A DNA stretch of 5,937 nt from a virus, in the IMG/VR virus record IMGVR_UViG_3300045988_001624, positions 1 through 5,937 of that record. One strand, 5' to 3'. Below are positions 1-5,937 of the stretch, piece after piece; position 1 is the stretch's first letter; each line of letters begins with the position of its first letter. The notes under the pieces are model-generated. The model saw nothing but the letters and a program-made list of their open reading frames with translations, made no database searches and was not told the origin of the DNA. A program made the translations under genes and the position numbers.

Positions 1-55
1 GGTATTCGACTGTAAGAAAAAAGGAGAAAAACAATGGAACACAACTATTATGGCA
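1..55. repeat. Terminal redundancy: 1-55 is identical to 5883-5937, the signature of a circular genome assembled with overlap. True unit length is 5882 nt.
   Basis: Direct comparison of the first 55 nt (ggtattcgactgtaagaaaaaaggagaaaaacaatggaacacaactattatggca) with the last 55 nt of the window; exact match. Confidence 0.95.
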
Positions 56-273
56 TCTGGGACAGCGTAGCAAAATGTTACGCATGGATTGGCGAGAGCA
101 AAAATGACCAGACGTTTGCACGCATGTGCAACGTAATGCAGAAGGACGAAAAGACCTTTATCGGGCAGTCGCCGCAGGACTACGCCGGGCACAAACTGGC
201 AGTGTTCAACGACGAAAGCGGAGAATTCACCAACTACAAAGAAAAAGTGTGGGAGGGTAAGCCGAATGAATAA
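34..273 (+). CDS. Hypothetical small protein, 79 aa. By position (between the small basic protein and the VP3-like gene) it could be a VP5-like accessory protein; function unknown.
   Basis: ATG at 34 preceded by AAGGAG (21-26) with 7-nt spacing. Stop TAA 271-273 overlaps the ATG of the next gene (ATGAATAA), suggesting translational coupling. Same strand and A-rich codon style as the other genes. Confidence 0.55.
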   Translation: MEHNYYGIWDSVAKCYAWIGESKNDQTFARMCNVMQKDEKTFIGQSPQDYAGHKLAVFNDESGEFTNYKEKVWEGKPNE

Positions 274-700
274 AAGATACGAAGAAGGGCGAAAGCCCTT
301 CTTTTCTGAATCAGGCAAAACACAACGAAAACAATACGTTTGGGCAAAAAACAAAGAAGGCAAAGAATATCTGCAGGAAACAGAAAGCATTGACATTCAA
401 GCAGAAATTGAAAGCTATGCAGACGAATGCGATATTAAAAACATTGTACGAAAAGCAAGTTTTGACCCGCAGTTTATGCAGAGCCTTTCACAGGGAGCAT
501 TGGACGGGACAGAGACAGATATCACGGAATGGCCACAGAACATCCACGAGTATCATCGAATGATTGCAACAGCACGAGCAAACGCAATTGCACTGCAGAA
601 GATGCAGAAAGAAGCGCCAAAAGAAACGCCAAAAGAAACGCCAAAAGAAACGCCAAAAGAAACACCAAAGGAAGGAGAGAAGAAGAGTGAATCGGAATAA
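266..700 (+). CDS. VP3: Putative internal scaffolding protein (VP3-like), 144 aa, with a C-terminal (KETP)x5 low-complexity tail.
   Basis: Sits immediately upstream of VP1, as VP3 does in gokushoviruses. The acidic middle region followed by a W-P-x-N...A-rich helix resembles gokushovirus VP3 architecture as I recall it. Start is translationally coupled to the upstream ORF. A 12-nt tandem repeat encodes the PKET repeats. Confidence 0.55.
   Translation: MNKRYEEGRKPFFSESGKTQRKQYVWAKNKEGKEYLQETESIDIQAEIESYADECDIKNIVRKASFDPQFMQSLSQGALDGTETDITEWPQNIHEYHRMIATARANAIALQKMQKEAPKETPKETPKETPKETPKEGEKKSESE
282..308 (+). terminator. Hairpin with a GNRA loop: stem aagaagggc / gcccttctt (9 bp), loop gaaa, followed by a T-rich run. 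It lies 9 nt after the stop of the 79-aa ORF and inside the 5' end of the VP3-like gene. Candidate leaky terminator or mRNA-stabilising structure.
   Basis: Inverted repeat 282-290 / 295-303 read directly from the sequence, followed by ttct. Confidence 0.4.
616..675 (+). repeat. Tandem 12-nt repeat gccaaaagaaac: 4 perfect copies plus 1 degenerate copy, in frame within the VP3-like gene, encoding (P-K-E-T)n.
   Basis: Perfect copies at 616-627, 628-639, 640-651 and 652-663; degenerate copy at 664-675. Confidence 0.9.
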
Positions 701-728
701 CGAACGGCATTTTAACCAGATTCCGGAA

Positions 729-2360
729 ATGAAAGCAAGCCGAACGCGATTCAATCGAGATCAGACGATTTTAACGACATTCGACGCGGGTAAACTCATC
801 CCATTTTACGTGGATGAAGTATTGCCGGGTGACACTTTCAGCGTGGATACAGCGGCGATTATCCGTATGACAACGCCAAAATACCCGGTAATGGACGATA
901 GTTTTATCGACTTTTACTATTTCTTCTGTCCGAACCGCATTTTGTGGGACAACTTCAAATACTTTATGGGCGAAGTGGAGGAAACTCCGTGGATGCCTAC
1001 AAAAACGTATGCTGTACCACAAATCAAAATCAACGGAAATAGTGCAGTAGCTAAACCAAATGAAAGGTCAATTCTTGACTACATGGGCGTGCCCACAAAG
1101 ATAAATAAACCATTCAGTGTAAACGCGCTTCCTGTCAGAGCATACGTTAAAATCTGGAATGAATTTTTCAGAGACCAAAACGTAGATAACGCAGCAAGCA
1201 TAAAAACGGATGACGAAGACGTAATCTATAATTCAACAGAAGACCAAAAGGGAACTTTGGAAGAAGACCTGAAGTTTGCAATCAGCGGCAACAACCTGTT
1301 ACCGGTTAATAAATTCCACGACTATTTCACAAGCTGCCTACCGTATCCGCAGAGAGGGCCAAACGTAACACTACCGCTAACTGGAAATGCAAGAGTAGAA
1401 TGGAGTTTTTCAACAGAAGAACTGCAGAATTACGGAATCATGACCAGCAACGGTGAAACACATCTGATACCGACAAACGGAAATACGTTAGGAGCACCCA
1501 CAAGAAACGAAGATAACGGAAAGGCAAGAGTAATATTTGGAAAAGACACAAACGGAGTATCTACATGGGTGCCAATGGAAGCAAGGCTAGACAATGCAAC
1601 ATCAGCAACAATCAACCAGCTTCGACAGGCCATCAGCGTGCAACAGTACTACGAAGCACTAGCAAGAGGTGGCTCACGGTACAGAGAGCAAGTACAGGCA
1701 ATTTGGGATGTCATCATTTCGGATAAAACGGTACAAGTGCCTGAATATCTGGGCGGCGGACGCTATCACGTCAATATCAACCAAATTGTGCAGACCAGTG
1801 GCCAGCAGACAAACAATGATACACCCATTGGTGAAACCGGTGCAATGTCCGTCACACCTATCAATGAAAGTTCTTTCACAAAGAGTTTCGAAGAGCATGG
1901 CTTTGTGATTGGCGTGTGTTGCGTAAGACATAGCAGAAGCTACCAACAGGGGCTTGAACGTTTCTGGAGCAGAAAAGACCGCCTTGACTATTATGTGCCG
2001 CAGTTCGCAAATCTGGGAGAACAGCCAGTAAAAAAGAAGGAAATCATGCTCACCGGCAATACAACCGATGATGAAACCTTTGGCTATCAAGAAGCATGGG
2101 CAGACTACCGGATGAAGCCAAACCGTGTAAGCGGTTTAATGCGAAGCAACGCAACGAGAACGCTCGATTTCTGGCACTATGCAGACAACTATGCAGAAGT
2201 TCCTACACTGTCGCAAGAGTGGATGGCAGAAGGAAAAGCGGAAATCGCAAGAACGCTAATTGTAGAGGACGAGCCCCAATTCTTTGGAGCAATCCGCGTA
2301 GCAAACAAGACAACTCGCAGGATGCCGCTTTACAGCGTGCCGGGGCTGTACAAACTGTAA
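729..2360 (+). CDS. VP1: Major capsid protein VP1 (Microviridae F-like / gokushovirus VP1), 543 aa from ATG 729. An alternative GTG start at 687 has a strong SD.
   Basis: The N-terminal region TTFDAGKLIPFYVDEVLPGDTF...FYYFFCPNRILWDNF is the hallmark conserved block of gokushovirus VP1. Length fits VP1. Stop TAA 2358-2360. Confidence 0.93.
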   Translation: MKASRTRFNRDQTILTTFDAGKLIPFYVDEVLPGDTFSVDTAAIIRMTTPKYPVMDDSFIDFYYFFCPNRILWDNFKYFMGEVEETPWMPTKTYAVPQIKINGNSAVAKPNERSILDYMGVPTKINKPFSVNALPVRAYVKIWNEFFRDQNVDNAASIKTDDEDVIYNSTEDQKGTLEEDLKFAISGNNLLPVNKFHDYFTSCLPYPQRGPNVTLPLTGNARVEWSFSTEELQNYGIMTSNGETHLIPTNGNTLGAPTRNEDNGKARVIFGKDTNGVSTWVPMEARLDNATSATINQLRQAISVQQYYEALARGGSRYREQVQAIWDVIISDKTVQVPEYLGGGRYHVNINQIVQTSGQQTNNDTPIGETGAMSVTPINESSFTKSFEEHGFVIGVCCVRHSRSYQQGLERFWSRKDRLDYYVPQFANLGEQPVKKKEIMLTGNTTDDETFGYQEAWADYRMKPNRVSGLMRSNATRTLDFWHYADNYAEVPTLSQEWMAEGKAEIARTLIVEDEPQFFGAIRVANKTTRRMPLYSVPGLYKL

Positions 2361-2362
2361 GA

Positions 2363-2395
2363 AAGGAGGAAGCCGGGAGAAATCCCGGCTATTTT
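2363..2395 (+). promoter_or_regulatory. SD AAGGAGG (2363-2369) followed by a perfect 8-bp hairpin (agccggga gaaa tcccggct, 2371-2390) and atttt, 10 nt before the VP2 ATG. Candidate leaky terminator and/or a structured RBS that folds to bring the SD near the start codon.
   Basis: Perfect inverted repeat AGCCGGGA / TCCCGGCT with a GAAA tetraloop, seen directly in the sequence. There is no SD within 15 nt of ATG 2401 unless the hairpin is folded out. Confidence 0.5.
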
Positions 2396-2400
2396 AAAAA

Positions 2401-3309
2401 ATGGCGTTTGGAATAGACGACTTCTTGATGTTAGCCGGAGGCATTGGAACGGTAGCAAACACAATAGGAAACGTGGCAAATGCCGCAGGAAACGTAGGAA
2501 GATTATTCGGCGGATGGGGTCAAACAGGCCAGAGCCAGAGCGCGGGCGGAAGCACACAGCAAGGTGGCGGAAGCAGTCAAAGCATGAGCAAATCCGGAAC
2601 GAATGATGAACAGGTGATGCAGTATCTGAAAAATGCATACCAATATCAGACAGCAGAAGGACAAAGACAAAGTCAATTTAATCAACGATCTATGTTGGAA
2701 CAGATGGGTTACAACACACTAGGAGCAATCGCACAAGGCATATACAATCACATCGAAAACGCAGCGGCAATGAACTTCAACTCGACAGAAGCAATGAAAA
2801 ACCGGGAATGGCAAGAATACATGTCAAATACAGCCTATCAGAGGGCAGTTGAAGACATGAAAAAAGCTGGACTTAATCCTATATTAGCATTCCAGAACGG
2901 CGGCGCAAGCACGCCCGGAGGAAGCGCAGGAACGATATCAGGTGCAAGCATGGGAGCGCCATCATCAAGTGCGCTAGGAGTAAGCAGAGCAAGTGGATTC
3001 GTGCCTAACTCTTACTCAAGTGAAAGTTGGTCAAAAAGTGATTGGTACAACGCTGCACAAAGCTGGAATCAAATGTTGAGTTCAACGGGAATGTCACCAT
3101 ATGGCCTAATGAAAGCATTTGAAGGAATCAACAACGGTGTCGATAACGTAATGGACGAAAACGTGCCAAACAACAGAAAATCCGGAAATAACAAGCATGG
3201 AGGTATAACAGCACAAAACTTTGGTGGTACAAAAAAGAACACAGTAACCATGCAAGACAAAACAGGAAGTTACGGACAAAAGAGAAAGCCAGGTGATTAT
3301 TTAAAGTGA
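2401..3309 (+). CDS. VP2: Minor capsid / DNA pilot protein VP2, 302 aa.
   Basis: Gly/Ala/Asn-rich N-terminus (GGIGTVANTIGNVANAAGNVG). Contains the conserved gokushovirus VP2 block NREWQEYMSNTAYQRAVEDMKKAGLNPILAF. Located directly after VP1, as in gokushoviruses. Confidence 0.9.
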   Translation: MAFGIDDFLMLAGGIGTVANTIGNVANAAGNVGRLFGGWGQTGQSQSAGGSTQQGGGSSQSMSKSGTNDEQVMQYLKNAYQYQTAEGQRQSQFNQRSMLEQMGYNTLGAIAQGIYNHIENAAAMNFNSTEAMKNREWQEYMSNTAYQRAVEDMKKAGLNPILAFQNGGASTPGGSAGTISGASMGAPSSSALGVSRASGFVPNSYSSESWSKSDWYNAAQSWNQMLSSTGMSPYGLMKAFEGINNGVDNVMDENVPNNRKSGNNKHGGITAQNFGGTKKNTVTMQDKTGSYGQKRKPGDYLK

Positions 3310-4325
3310 GCTGCTATAAGCCGTTAATACGGATATACAGCCCAGAAAACAGAGAAATTAGCGGGCAAGTGTATTCACTTGCCCGCTATTCTGAAAGAGT
3401 GGGCAAAAAATTAAAATATGAAGATTTAATATATGAACCAAAAGTTATGTTAATACCTTGTGGGCAGTGCATCGGATGCAGAATACAGCAAAGAGAAGAC
3501 TGGACAACAAGAATTGAACTAGAAGCGAGACAATGGCCGAAAGAGCAAGTATGGTTTATCACATTAACATATGATGATGAACACATACCGGGAATGATTC
3601 TTAGTACAGGCGAAATCATGAGAAAAGTGCAGTATGTTTGGAAACCAGGGAAAAAAACACCGGAAAGCGTGCAAACACTACTATACACAGACGTGCAGAA
3701 ATTCTTAAAAAAGCTCAGAAGAGCTTACAAATCAAGATTAAGATTCTTCTGTGCAGGAGAATATGGAGAGCAAACGGCAAGGCCGCATTATCACATGATA
3801 CTATACGGATGGGAACCAACAGACCTGAAACAGCTATACAAAATCCAACACAACGGATACTTTACTTCAGAAACACTTTGTAAAATTTGGGGCAATGGAA
3901 ATGTGCAAATTGCACAAGCAACACCGGAAACATACAGGTATGTTGCCGGATACGTAACGAAAAAAATGTACGAAATTGATGGCAAAAAAGCAAATACTTA
4001 CTATGAGCTAGGGCAACAAAAGCCATTCGCGTGCATGTCACTTAAACCGGGACTAGGAGATGCCTACTATAAAGAGCACAAAGAAGAAATCTGGAGACAA
4101 GGCTACATTCAATGCACCAACGGAAAACAAGCACAGATACCGCGATACTATGAAAAGATGATGGAAAAAGAAAACCCAGAAAGGCTGTGGAGAATCAAGC
4201 AAAATAGGCAAAGAAAAGCAATCGAGCAAAAAAGGCTACAGCTGGAAGGCAAAGACTACAAAACACAATTAGAAACAAAGGAGCGTGTTATCAAAAAACA
4301 AACGAGAAAGCGTGGAATCCTTTAA
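3306..4325 (+). CDS. VP4: Rolling-circle replication initiator VP4 (phiX174 gene A-like HUH endonuclease), 339 aa, with a GTG start overlapping the VP2 stop (GTGA).
   Basis: N-terminal CxxC block (CGQCIGCR). Motif I FITLTYDD, motif II HUH as PHYHMILY (codons at 3786-3794) and motif III YVAGYVTKK (Tyr codons at 3939 and 3951). Motif III is near-identical to phiX174 A protein YVAKYVNKK. SD AGGTGA at 3291-3296, 9 nt upstream of GTG 3306. An in-frame stop at 3294-3296 excludes any upstream start. Confidence 0.92.
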   Translation: MSCYKPLIRIYSPENREISGQVYSLARYSERVGKKLKYEDLIYEPKVMLIPCGQCIGCRIQQREDWTTRIELEARQWPKEQVWFITLTYDDEHIPGMILSTGEIMRKVQYVWKPGKKTPESVQTLLYTDVQKFLKKLRRAYKSRLRFFCAGEYGEQTARPHYHMILYGWEPTDLKQLYKIQHNGYFTSETLCKIWGNGNVQIAQATPETYRYVAGYVTKKMYEIDGKKANTYYELGQQKPFACMSLKPGLGDAYYKEHKEEIWRQGYIQCTNGKQAQIPRYYEKMMEKENPERLWRIKQNRQRKAIEQKRLQLEGKDYKTQLETKERVIKKQTRKRGIL

Positions 4326-4337
4326 TCGGTGTCACTT

Positions 4338-4374
4338 AGCCCAGTACCTATCAAGTAGGGTACTGGGCTTTATT
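4338..4374 (+). terminator. Rho-independent terminator-like hairpin immediately after the VP4 stop: stem AGCCCAGTACC / GGTACTGGGCT (11 bp, extendable to 13), loop tatcaagtag, then tttatt.
   Basis: Inverted repeat 4338-4348 / 4359-4369 followed by a T-tract at 4369-4374. The loop is the reverse complement of ACTTGATA (see findings). Confidence 0.6.
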
Positions 4375-4420
4375 CGCGCGCACACGCGCACGCGTAGACG
4401 CGCGCACACGCGCACGCGTA
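4375..4420. repeat. Two tandem copies of the 22-nt unit cgcgcgcacacgcgcacgcgta (4375-4396 and 4399-4420), separated by ga. Each unit alternates pyrimidine and purine perfectly and is GC-rich, so it is Z-DNA-prone. Each unit contains an MluI-type palindrome acgcgt.
   Basis: Exact 22/22 identity between the two copies, read directly. Strict Y-R alternation across each 22-mer. Confidence 0.9.
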
Positions 4421-4458
4421 TTATTATATAACTTGTTGTAGCCGTAGTAGTAGAGTAA

Positions 4459-4622
4459 GTTGAAAAGTTAAAAACAGATAATTTTGAACGTTAAAACATT
4501 AAAAAAAGATAAAAACAAGCGTTGAAAGATTTGTTGAAAAAATGTTAAAATGTTAAAATACTCTATTGTGCTAAAGTTTAACAATGTGGAAATGTTGAAA
4601 ACTCTGTGGAAAATGTTGAAAA
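4459..4622. repeat. AT-rich iteron-like array with at least 9 copies of a TGTT(G/A)AAA(A) core. It includes a perfect tandem tgttaaaa x2 (4543-4558) and a ~18-nt direct repeat tgtggaaa(a)tgttgaaaa (4585-4601 and 4605-4622). Candidate DNA-unwinding / protein-binding region.
   Basis: Motif occurrences: gttgaaaa 4459-4466, gttaaaaa 4467-4474, gttaaaac 4490-4497, gttgaaag 4521-4528, tgttgaaaa 4532-4540, tgttaaaa 4543-4550 and 4551-4558, tgttgaaaa 4593-4601 and 4614-4622. Confidence 0.7.
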
Positions 4623-4765
4623 GAACGGCAAATAGAGCAGGACAAGTGGCGGCCGCAAAGTCTGACGGACCGCGCCAATATTTGAAGATGTGCGCCTTCG
4701 GGCGGGAGTTCAACGGCGGTCCTATCCTAGGAAAGGTTACAAATTATTACAAAGAAGCAAAATCA

Positions 4766-4794
4766 TTGAAAAAGGTATTGACAAGTAATATAAT
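4766..4794 (+). promoter_or_regulatory. Sigma70-like promoter: -35 TTGAAA (4766-4771), 17-nt spacer, -10 TATAAT (4789-4794). Predicted TSS is near 4801, driving the downstream small-gene block.
   Basis: Consensus hexamers with canonical spacing. First credible ORF starts 23 nt downstream, with a GGTGA SD. Confidence 0.45.
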
Positions 4795-4823
4795 GGAACC
4801 AGAAAGAAAGAACGGTGAAAACC

Positions 4824-5036
4824 ATGAAAACAAAATGGCTTACAAAAAAACAACTGGAATATTTAAAAGTGAACGGCAGAGTATGGGGAAACAAATACTA
4901 TTATGTAAAAGTAGTACATGGAATCGTAAAATACCATGAAATCTATTACAAAACAGAAACAGGAAAAAAGCTCATGACTGATGATTATGCAACATTCAAT
5001 AGTTTATGGAAATACGCAAAGATAAAAGAGGATTGA
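4824..5036 (+). CDS. Hypothetical Tyr/Lys-rich small protein, 70 aa from ATG 4824 (the ORF track shows a GTG at 4815). No transmembrane segment.
   Basis: ATG 4824 is preceded by GGTGA (4814-4818). A-ending codon bias matches the rest of the genome. Stop TGA 5034-5036 sits just before the peptidase RBS/start. Confidence 0.45.
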   Translation: MKTKWLTKKQLEYLKVNGRVWGNKYYYVKVVHGIVKYHEIYYKTETGKKLMTDDYATFNSLWKYAKIKED

Positions 5037-5041
5037 CGAAA

Positions 5042-5431
5042 ATGATTAAATGCTATATCATGGATACAGACGCAAATGAAAATGTTGGCAAGCACTTCAA
5101 AGTAAAAGAATTCGCGTGCAAAGATGGTTCACAGGTAGTTTTCATAGACAGCTATCTAGTATCAATTCTGGACATTCTCAGAAACCAAGTTGGAAAGCCA
5201 GTGCACATAAACAGTGGATACAGGACACCAACAAGGAATAAATCGGTAGGCGGTGCAAAGTACTCATACCATATGCGGGGAATGGCCGCGGACATTCGGG
5301 TTAATGGCATGACCTCAAAAGAAATCGCCAACAAACTGAAAAAAATCATCCCGACTGGCTGTGGAATCATCGTATACAGTACATGGGTACACATCGACAC
5401 GCGCACCAAAGCATACAGAAAGGGGGTGTAA
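5042..5431 (+). CDS. Peptidase M15_3 family (zinc D-Ala-D-Ala carboxypeptidase / endolysin-like peptidoglycan hydrolase), 129 aa from ATG 5042. The ORF track's upstream ATG at 5006 has no RBS.
   Basis: Near-textbook Peptidase_M15_3 signature: F..EF.C.DG....L...L..LR...GKP..INSGYRTP..N..VGGA..S.H..G.AADI.V.G........GCG..VY...VHID.R, including the H...D...H zinc-ligand pattern. RBS AAGAGGA at 5026-5032, 9 nt before ATG 5042. Confidence 0.9.
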   Translation: MIKCYIMDTDANENVGKHFKVKEFACKDGSQVVFIDSYLVSILDILRNQVGKPVHINSGYRTPTRNKSVGGAKYSYHMRGMAADIRVNGMTSKEIANKLKKIIPTGCGIIVYSTWVHIDTRTKAYRKGV

Positions 5432-5433
5432 AA

Positions 5434-5553
5434 ATGGCTTTTATCAGTCTCAAAGACGCAAAGGAAGCAATCAAAGTGATGATGGAAATCCTAGCAGTGC
5501 TTGACAAAATTTATCATGCGCTGGTGGACAACGTCACCGATAAGACGGAGTAA
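5434..5553 (+). CDS. Unannotated 39-aa ORF (MAFISLKDAKEAIKVMMEILAVLDKIYHALVDNVTDKTE), amphipathic-helix-like. Below the size cut-off of the supplied ORF track.
   Basis: ATG 5434 is 6 nt after the AGGGGG run (5422-5427). Starts 3 nt after the peptidase stop. Its stop TAA (5551-5553) overlaps the AAGGAG RBS of the next gene, so it is tightly packed like the real genes. Confidence 0.3.
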   Translation: MAFISLKDAKEAIKVMMEILAVLDKIYHALVDNVTDKTE

Positions 5554-5563
5554 GGAGAAAAAA

Positions 5564-5791
5564 ATGGTTACAAAATCATGGAACGTAAGAGACCAGACCG
5601 AAAAAGAACTAACCGAACTGCTTGAAAAGAAATACAAAGAAATCGAGAACGATTACAAGCTCCTACGAAAAATAAGCGAGATTGAGACCGCAAAAAAGAT
5701 GATAGATGAAATATGGCAATGCAAAAGATTTGCCAACGTCATTGAGCTGGAGCTTATCAGAAGGGGATTCTATAATGGGACGACATCGTAA
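5564..5791 (+). CDS. Hypothetical helical / coiled-coil-like protein, 76 aa from ATG 5564. The ORF track extends it to 5501, but that portion has no RBS.
   Basis: AAGGAG at 5552-5557, 6 nt upstream of ATG 5564. Charged heptad-like sequence (EKELTELLEKKYKEIENDYKLLRKISEIE). Confidence 0.55.
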   Translation: MVTKSWNVRDQTEKELTELLEKKYKEIENDYKLLRKISEIETAKKMIDEIWQCKRFANVIELELIRRGFYNGTTS

Positions 5792-5897
5792 AGTAATGCG
5801 CAACGCAAAGGACAAGCGTATGTTCAACGTGACCGCGCGAAAAACGAAAAGTATCAACCTGAGTCAGAAACCAATGCGCGGCGGTATTCGACTGTAA
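5775..5897 (+). CDS. Small highly basic DNA-binding / packaging protein (phiX174 J-like; gokushovirus ORF8-like), 40 aa: MGRHRKVMRNAKDKRMFNVTARKTKSINLSQKPMRGGIRL.
   Basis: 12 of 40 residues are K/R. The C-terminal PMRGGIRL matches the characteristic ending of gokushovirus ORF8-type proteins as I recall them. SD AAGGGG at 5761-5766, 8 nt upstream. Runs across the circular junction (end equals position 15). Confidence 0.7.
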   Translation: MGRHRKVMRNAKDKRMFNVTARKTKSINLSQKPMRGGIRL

Positions 5898-5937
5898 GAA
5901 AAAAGGAGAAAAACAATGGAACACAACTATTATGGCA
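5883..5937. repeat. Second copy of the terminal redundancy (equivalent to 1-55).
   Basis: Exact identity with 1-55. Confidence 0.95.

Follow-up and report, generated by a model that had tools for sequence, protein, structure and literature searches.

The DNA analysed here, called the window in the following, is IMG/VR virus record IMGVR_UViG_3300045988_001624, positions 1 to 5,937, which by its gene content and its nearest database records is the genome of a mammalian-gut gokushovirus. Downstream of its VP4 gene it carries a gene for a small zinc peptidase of the Peptidase_M15_3 family, and no holin gene is recognizable on its coding strand. We propose, with a probability of roughly 0.7, that this peptidase is an accessory endolysin that was captured from the lysis cassette of a tailed phage and that gains access to the cell wall via a lesion made by another event.

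The peptidase and its fold

The gene and its zinc-ligand codons lie at the following positions:

5042-5431, + strand: Peptidase_M15_3 (MEROPS M15A) gene, 129 aa, assigned by Pfam, PHROG and fold
5270-5293, + strand: codons of H77-x6-D84 (HxxxxxxD; H77-MRGMAA-D84), first two zinc ligands, assigned by sequence and alignment with 1LBU
5384-5392, + strand: codons of W115-V116-H117 (WxH), third zinc ligand, assigned by sequence and a 57-sequence alignment

A preliminary description of this DNA, made from the letters alone, had postulated a full zinc M15_3 peptidase domain at this place, and the profile search bears this out: Pfam PF08291 (Peptidase_M15_3) matches with an E-value of 7.5e-24 and 84.4 bits (gathering cut-off 23.2) over the entire model, positions 1-108 of 108. 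The product also matches PHROG 894, labelled 'endolysin', with an E-value of 5.5e-44. The match to Peptidase_M15_2/DUF882 is weaker and marks a related family to which the protein does not belong, and to the peptidoglycan L,D-endopeptidase MepK it is likewise only related, as it reaches 56.5 bits with the equivalog model NCBIfam NF053624, which has a cut-off of 185. The open reading frame (ORF) is preceded at a distance of 9 nt by the ribosome-binding sequence AAGAGGA, and the start at 5042 is supported by the fact that in the majority of the 120 closest database relatives listed the peptidase is called at 129-130 aa. The protein is a lone catalytic domain without a cell-wall-binding domain.

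In two experimental reports on phage enzymes (PMC5025407, PMC13461873), M15A is defined by the motifs HxxxxxxD and (W/F)xH. In an alignment of 57 sequences, which comprises microvirus and Faecalibacterium-phage-type peptidases, R61, W115, V116, H117 and D119 do not vary, and at least 90% of the rows retain H77 and D84. In 1LBU, the residues aligned with H77, D84 and R61 are H154, D161 and R138. The expected H/D/H zinc triad (H77, D84, H117) is kept on alignment, and profile and motifs together show a genuine M15_3 domain with an intact metal-site motif set.

An AlphaFold2 model built on the 57-sequence alignment, which includes the family of the Faecalibacterium phage Toutatis endolysin (see below), has a mean predicted local distance difference test (pLDDT) score of 74.9, with averages of 75-95 per 10-residue block for residues 31-120; it replaced an earlier, poor model from 27 near-identical sequences (pLDDT 63). 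The best Foldseek match of the model in the PDB is 1LBU (E 4.5e-4, probability 1.00), followed by VanY, VanXY, Hedgehog N-domains and LdcB, and the fold of the modelled peptidase is that of the LAS / Hedgehog-DD-peptidase group. 1LBU, the zinc D-Ala-D-Ala carboxypeptidase of Streptomyces albus G and M15A type enzyme, is also the only solved structure that is detectable by sequence (profile E 1.4e-8), with 27% identity over 91 aligned columns. This muramoyl-pentapeptide DD-carboxypeptidase differs in being secreted, in its size of 213 aa and in its additional N-terminal peptidoglycan-binding domain, and its substrate specificity cannot be transferred to the peptidase of the window.

For comparisons within the clade, we used the window together with 91 relatives (11 GenBank genomes and 80 IMG/VR loci) whose peptidases share 70-96% identity with that of the window. 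In these 92 loci, the ratio of nonsynonymous to synonymous polymorphism (pN/pS) of the peptidase gene is 0.24, and the gene is under purifying selection.

No holin, signal peptide or signal-arrest-release sequence

Hydrophobic segments were sought with a 19-residue Kyte-Doolittle (KD) window in all stop-to-stop ORFs of at least 20 aa in all six frames. No + strand ORF of the window reaches a KD19 of 1.4 in any of the three + frames, the highest values being those of the VP2 N-terminus (1.38), a 39-aa ORF (1.35) and an internal helix of the peptidase (1.22). The Gly/Ala-rich VP2 N-terminus, as the most hydrophobic + strand segment of the genome, lies below transmembrane (TM) grade. Among the neighbours of the peptidase, TM-grade segments are absent, with the 39-aa ORF having the highest KD19. 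There is thus no TM-containing protein beside the peptidase that would complete a canonical holin-endolysin cassette, and in the three + frames, scanned stop to stop, there is no small membrane-anchored protein of the phiX174 E type. The N-terminus of the peptidase, MIKCYIMDTDANENVGKHFK..., is hydrophilic: the best 18-residue window of the first 30 residues has an Eisenberg mean of -0.17, and the net charge of these residues is 0 (4 acidic, 4 basic). An alternative upstream in-frame start at 5006 adds just MEIRKDKRGLTK, which is hydrophilic as well, so that a signal peptide or a signal-arrest-release (SAR) domain is found with neither start.

The preliminary description had reported the lack of TM helices in the neighbours, of a holin, and of a signal peptide or SAR domain in the enzyme. 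All of this holds, and the lack of a TM neighbour extends to 91 of the 92 genomes, in which the scan finds no recognizable TM protein on the coding strand (window included). A + strand ORF with a KD19 of at least 1.7 occurs in four genomes, and one of these four ORFs is a convincing membrane protein. This is a 39-aa single-TM ORF in KT264793 (MITFLAIMFSMIACYAIIVGSVYLTIMMVDDIKKWRNEK, 5057-5176, KD 2.47), situated between VP8 and VP5, with a GAGGAGG ribosome-binding site and a GTG start that overlaps the VP8 stop. Neither the window nor the other 90 relatives have this ORF, which could be a holin-like gene acquired recently. To be without a holin is thus a trait of the lineage as a whole, in which a small TM gene was gained by at least one member. 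The route of the enzyme to the murein, to which the preliminary description had drawn attention, has no explanation in a signal, a SAR domain or a TM-containing neighbour.

Two groups of other candidates were considered and rejected. Hydrophobic ORFs are numerous on the minus strand because this antisense strand is T-rich, and the best placed of them (4468-4713 and 5152-5409) contain stop codons in most relatives. On the + strand, a 129-aa ORF at 4550-4939, in the 'noncoding' gap, does not stay open over its full length in any relative. The composition of the + strand is skewed (A 0.38, T 0.19; AT skew 0.13-0.45 throughout), and the coding strand therefore cannot readily encode hydrophobic segments, which calls for caution with TM-based holin searches in gokushovirus genomes like these.

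Relatives and origin of the gene

The peptidase matches >1,600 protein clusters, and the best 120 of these are 82-95% identical and all located on short contigs, most of them <7 kb. The preliminary description had called M15_3 genes sporadic in metagenomic Microviridae; for the clade of the window this is not the case. The 92 genomes, from human, pig and monkey samples, share the gene at the same position. The GenBank gokushoviruses MZ821031, MG945383, KT264793 and KX513876 have it between VP4 and VP5 and encode 82-96% identical proteins, and KX513877 has it in the same position with 63% protein identity. In GenBank genomes that are ~82-84% identical in DNA and 88-95% identical in the peptidase, the gene is labelled 'similar to peptidase', and in KX513876 (82% protein identity) and KX513877 it is labelled 'peptidase M15'.

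The novelty implied by the preliminary description has to be withdrawn in view of these GenBank labels and of the description of gokushovirus M15_3 genes in 2012 (PMC3394797). Roux et al. (2012, PLoS One 7:e40418, PMC3394797) found 11 genes for M15_3 peptidases in Microviridae associated with humans; five of the 11 belonged to Gokushovirinae, and such peptidases occur also in Alpavirinae of the human gut. They showed an affinity to homologues of Faecalibacterium prausnitzii that stand in cassettes with a holin, concluded that the gene had been acquired horizontally at least twice, proposed an endolysin role, and noted the unknown ORFs adjoining the microvirus peptidase. Human-gut gokushovirus M15_3 peptidases are mentioned again in PMC7062461, and M15 peptidases occur also in marine and rhizobial microviruses (PMC11499846). 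According to Kirchberger et al. (2022, PMC9239249), peptidases are one of just two accessory-gene classes in microviruses, position-fixed in some families and swapped between distant ones. The peptidase of the window is a further member of this already described group, with the gene itself known since 2012. What is added here is the clade-wide count of TM ORFs, the exception of KT264793, the contrast to the Toutatis cassette, and the independence of the 39-aa ORF from the peptidase.

The closest cellular homologues (38-49% identity) are found in Faecalibacterium, Clostridiales, Eubacterium and metagenome-assembled genomes of other Bacillota, which agrees with the affinity seen by Roux et al. 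(2012). No prophage copy from which the host could be named was found among genomes representing each bacterial or archaeal species once, as no match exceeded 49% identity over >60 residues.

Comparison with known lysis systems

Among tailed phages, the closest homologue is the annotated endolysin (AUV56799) of Faecalibacterium phage FP_Toutatis, which is 44.5% identical and has 137 aa versus 129 aa. Like the peptidase of the window, it is a single-domain M15_3 protein with the same motifs and without a signal peptide, and its own relatives are found in Faecalibacterium phage Lelie and in Clostridia prophages. Ahead of their WxH motif, the tailed-phage enzymes contain a 7-residue insertion (PVKxGRP), which is missing from the microvirus enzymes. 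Another difference concerns the neighbourhood. In Toutatis, the endolysin gene is directly followed by a gene for a 131-aa protein with an N-terminal TM segment (KD 2.59), and next comes a 105-aa protein with a C-terminal TM segment (KD 1.91). Both are holin-like by position, whereas the microvirus has neither. A homologue that keeps a holin-like neighbour is also found in MT838592, a GC-rich 5-kb human faecal scaffold that is a microvirus or a tailed-phage fragment: the 41%-identical peptidase encoded there is directly followed by a protein of 78 aa, which has a TM segment at its N-terminal end (KD 2.44; 3989-4620).

The preliminary description had regarded these enzymes as not characterized. 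This is true for microviruses, for which no experimental work on a peptidase was found, but not for some of the tailed-phage M15A relatives. According to PMC5025407 and PMC13461873, the endolysins of Burkholderia phage ST79, Proteus phage LysPM1 and Shewanella phage Spp64 are biochemically tested M15A enzymes reported to degrade peptidoglycan or to lyse permeabilized cells, and the HxxxxxxD and (W/F)xH motifs are demonstrated for ST79 and LysPM1. These enzymes resemble that of the window in being small single-domain Peptidase_M15_3 proteins with the motifs and with 1LBU as closest structure; they differ in coming from tailed phages of Gram-negative hosts. For ST79, PMC5025407 moreover describes a holin and the spanin-type proteins LysB and LysC.

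With phiX174 protein E and other amurins, the window shares a very small phage genome and the lack of a holin-endolysin-spanin cassette. However, E is a small membrane protein that inhibits MraY, whereas the candidate lysis gene of the window encodes a soluble hydrolase, and a TM ORF is absent from the coding strand.

The accessory block

The peptidase gene lies within a block of small genes that has the following further features:

4766-4794, + strand: sigma70-like site TTGAAA-17-TATAAT, 11/12 consensus positions
4824-5036, + strand: ORF70, basic, 70 aa, net charge +8, no TM segment, from the sequence
5434-5553, + strand: ORF39, 39 aa, amphipathic helix, AAGGGGG upstream, from the sequence
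5564-5791, + strand: ORF75, charged and coiled-coil-like, 75 aa, no TM segment, AAGGAG upstream, from the sequence

This agrees with the preliminary description in the coordinates and in the sizes of 70 aa and 39 aa, but the third ORF has 75 aa and not 76. The sigma70-like promoter upstream of the block is found as described, but the site at 4766-4794 is a consensus match alone. The region contains nine such sites versus 3.5 expected from shuffles.

ORF70 has no match in Pfam, PHROG or NCBIfam, and within the 92 loci it occurs in the window and one relative only; it is variable cargo. ORF75 is present in 79 of the 92 loci (pN/pS 0.31), with only weak matches to coiled-coil-type families. ORF39 is more widespread, being found in 90 of the 92 loci, usually with a start 2-5 nt past the peptidase stop; the commonest distance between the two stop codons is 124 nt (37 of the 90 loci). 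It encodes a protein of ~40 aa with the nearly invariant core consensus MALISIKDVKQAIRIMMQILEKLDEIYHALHD, is under purifying selection (pN/pS 0.22), and has a hydrophobic moment of 0.53-0.70 and a net charge of -2. No family annotation was obtained in Pfam, PHROG, NCBIfam or the cluster labels: the family comprises 543 protein clusters, every one of them labelled hypothetical and nearly all on contigs of ~6 kb or less. Apparently it is restricted to gut gokushoviruses, where it usually stands just upstream of a VP8-like basic protein.

A tblastn search with ORF39 matched 31 gokushovirus records. Five fetched records (KT264799, MG945157, MG945135, MG945423 and KT264798) lack the peptidase and have ORF39 directly upstream of the VP8-like gene, and in KX513864 an ORF39-like gene precedes the peptidase. 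Since peptidase-less gokushoviruses carry it, ORF39 is a core gene of this gokushovirus clade beside which the peptidase was inserted, and the idea that it is a dedicated, peptidase-specific partner was rejected. A net acidic helix of this kind would suit a coiled-coil subunit no less than a peptide active on membranes.

The genome and its other genes

The remaining features of the window are:

5883-5937 = 1-55, no strand: terminal redundancy, 55 nt, exact, by identity match
34-273, + strand: VP5, Phage_ORF5 E 2.2e-9
266-700, + strand: VP3 scaffold, Chlamy_scaf E 2.3e-8
end at 2360, + strand: VP1 F-type capsid, Phage_F E 1.3e-137
2401-3309, + strand: VP2 pilot protein, phrog_8742 E 3.4e-108
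3306-4325, + strand: VP4 Rep, REP_ORF2-G2P E 5.9e-18
5775-5897, + strand: basic 40-aa protein, net charge +12, phrog_10695 E 8.8e-9

Because of the exact terminal redundancy, the window is circularly closed, with a genome of 5882 nt plus the assembly overlap of 55 nt, and the VP5 start (34) with its ribosome-binding site occurs again at the 3' end. Every recognizable gene is on the + strand, and the gene set VP1 to VP5 on a single strand of a circle is that of Gokushovirinae, which usually have a size of ~4.5-6 kb. The 40-aa basic protein is, from its composition and position, probably a DNA-binding protein of the gokushovirus J/VP8 type, and relatives have a homologous ORF in the same position. 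The nearest GenBank record is Microviridae sp. MZ821031 (88% DNA identity over 91% of the window), followed by pig, monkey and human gut gokushoviruses. The G+C content is 38-48% along most of the genome, and a scan of the window against Rfam gave no match. The VP3 scaffold has a (PKET)n tract at its C-terminal end, which is encoded at 608-673 by a 12-nt tandem repeat of 5.5 copies; the number of copies varies among relatives, as seen from gaps in antisense alignments.

Between VP4 and the accessory block with the peptidase, ~490 nt contain no conserved ORF. Directly after the VP4 stop, at 4338-4369, there is a hairpin with a perfect stem of 11-12 bp that is followed by TTTATT, and an exact 22-nt direct repeat, CGCGCGCACACGCGCACGCGTA, begins at 4375 and 4399; the DNA fold of the region 4326-4440 has a z-score of -5.5 versus shuffles. 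This hairpin and repeat region may serve as a terminator, as an origin or priming element for the complementary strand, or as both. The AT-rich, non-coding stretch 4440-4830 contains ~10 copies of the repeats GTTGAAAA / GTTAAAA / GTGGAAA(A). Its nucleotide sequence is partly conserved in relatives, with a conserved ORF on neither strand, and the repeats, which lie upstream of the promoter of the accessory block, resemble iterons or a series of protein-binding sites.

Proposed capture of an accessory endolysin without its holin

How did a gokushovirus come into possession of this enzyme, and how could the enzyme be used? In the reading that we favour, a gut gokushovirus lineage took the M15A gene horizontally from a lysis cassette of tailed phages or prophages of Clostridia-type bacteria (Faecalibacterium group), and the enzyme gene would have been captured alone, leaving the holin behind. 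As the Toutatis homologue keeps its TM neighbours and the microvirus has none, a capture without the holin is the simplest history. Late in infection, the peptidase would then most likely act as an accessory endolysin: with zinc held by H77, D84 and H117, and with R61 and W115 helping to position the stem peptide, it would hydrolyze an amide bond in the stem peptide or cross-bridge, which would weaken the wall and accelerate the release of virions. The peptidase-less gokushoviruses share ORF39 and the VP8-like gene, and the peptidase therefore appears as an add-on to a pre-existing genome plan. As these relatives exist, the clade must have another way to breach the envelope, and the peptidase probably exploits the resulting membrane damage. 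Wall access without a canonical holin, signal peptide or SAR domain would thereby depend on a membrane lesion or a loss of membrane integrity from this other late event, i.e. the lysis route that the peptidase-less relatives must share. The enzyme would therefore probably assist lysis as an accessory endolysin and would not be sufficient for lysis by itself. This analysis shows the identity of the domain, its intact motifs and fold, the purifying selection, the lack of TM ORFs across the clade, the TM partners beside the Toutatis homologue and the occurrence of ORF39 without the peptidase; from these we infer a role in lysis, the type of bond that is cut, the group of hosts and the way of export.

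Several points weigh against this view. In the classical model, an endolysin without a holin gives no lysis, and the mechanism is incomplete at this key step. Faecalibacterium has a G+C content of ~56%, which is well above the 38-48% of the phage. The confidence of the structural model is only moderate, with both termini <50 in pLDDT. As the + strand is A-rich and T-poor, a plain hydrophobicity threshold may overlook an unusual membrane protein. Finally, the searchable literature contains bioinformatic mentions only, and experimental lytic activity of any microvirus peptidase was not found in it.

What alternatives would account for the missing holin? The phage could in principle encode a non-TM membrane-active partner that plays the part of a holin late in infection, as the preliminary description had suggested for one of the small neighbours. 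ORF39 is the first candidate for such a function, as it stands directly downstream of the peptidase in most loci and combines purifying selection with an amphipathic helix; the second candidate is the Gly/Ala-rich N-terminus of VP2, which in most relatives exceeds all other + strand segments in hydrophobicity (KD 1.3-1.7). A dedicated disruptor among the neighbours has nevertheless lost ground: ORF70 is confined to the window and one relative, ORF75 is coiled-coil-like, and the five peptidase-less gokushoviruses as well as the gene order in KX513864 show that ORF39 is not peptidase-specific. Membrane-active lysis peptides such as phiKT gp28 are cationic, whereas ORF39 is net acidic, and its hydrophobic spacing of 3-4 residues fits a coiled coil equally well in a family that has no annotation. 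We therefore regard a partner of this kind as doubtful.

A different way to do without export would be an action inside the cell. The peptidase might cleave cytoplasmic precursors (UDP-MurNAc-pentapeptide, lipid I/II) or trim the terminal D-Ala, and such a VanX/VanY-like activity would starve wall synthesis, so that growing cells lyse without a holin, in parallel to phiX174 E, Qbeta A2 and LysM of phage M. Neither an export signal nor a holin would be needed, and neither is present; the sole solved sequence relative, 1LBU, is a DD-carboxypeptidase, with VanY and VanXY, which act on precursor termini, as the next structural neighbours, and lysis by a block of wall synthesis is known from small phages, as discussed by Roux et al. 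(2012, PMC3394797). However, the 44-46%-identical homologues are tailed-phage endolysins with TM proteins nearby, and in the available text of PMC5025407 and PMC13461873, ST79 and LysPM1 endolysins were over-produced in the E. coli cytoplasm and purified, with no mention there of host lysis on induction, and act on peptidoglycan of permeabilized cells. No sequence feature sets the peptidase of the window apart from them, and we consider precursor cleavage improbable.

Still less probable is that the peptidase is packaged in or bound to the capsid and digests the wall locally at DNA delivery. The preliminary description had named such an entry enzyme along with holin-independent export, and the sequence by itself speaks neither for nor against these two. 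The need for a holin would thereby be removed, the pilot protein VP2 must indeed cross the wall, and many tailed phages carry virion-associated peptidoglycan hydrolases. Yet the protein is a bare catalytic domain of 129 aa with nothing that resembles a capsid-binding or pilot domain, peptidase-less relatives have the same types of VP1 and VP2, and the T=1 capsid of a microvirus leaves hardly any free room inside. The tailed-phage homologues moreover belong to lysis cassettes and not to structural modules, and the gene lies in a non-structural accessory block. That the gene is a recently acquired functionless passenger or part of a mis-assembled chimera, as the variable accessory region and the related genomes without peptidase might suggest, is effectively refuted by the conservation and selection data (the gene is found at one and the same place in 92 independent genomes of human, pig and monkey origin, with a pN/pS of 0.24), to which the retention of all catalytic residues and the closed circle with its 55-nt overlap can be added.

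Implications for gokushovirus lysis

The gene has long been known, and one more copy adds little; the export step is a fair question, albeit not a new one either. It is sharpened here by a set of 92 genomes in which no TM-grade coding-strand protein is found except in KT264793, set against a Toutatis homologue that keeps its TM neighbours. If a host-derived or unseen lesion is needed, this would be an ordinary case. It is unlikely that the clade achieves endolysin-assisted lysis without any TM protein, be it by an M15A enzyme that acts on precursors or by ORF39 or the VP2 N-terminus as non-TM permeabilizer. If it were nevertheless true that the enzyme lyses cells without a membrane protein, this would amount to a novel strategy of lysis, with a compact lytic module that might be put to practical use, and a permeabilizing ORF39 or VP2 N-terminus would also account for the long-missing lysis function of gokushoviruses generally. 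Gokushoviruses are among the most abundant phages of the mammalian gut, and the acquired peptidase is the sole recognizable lysis-related gene that they carry.

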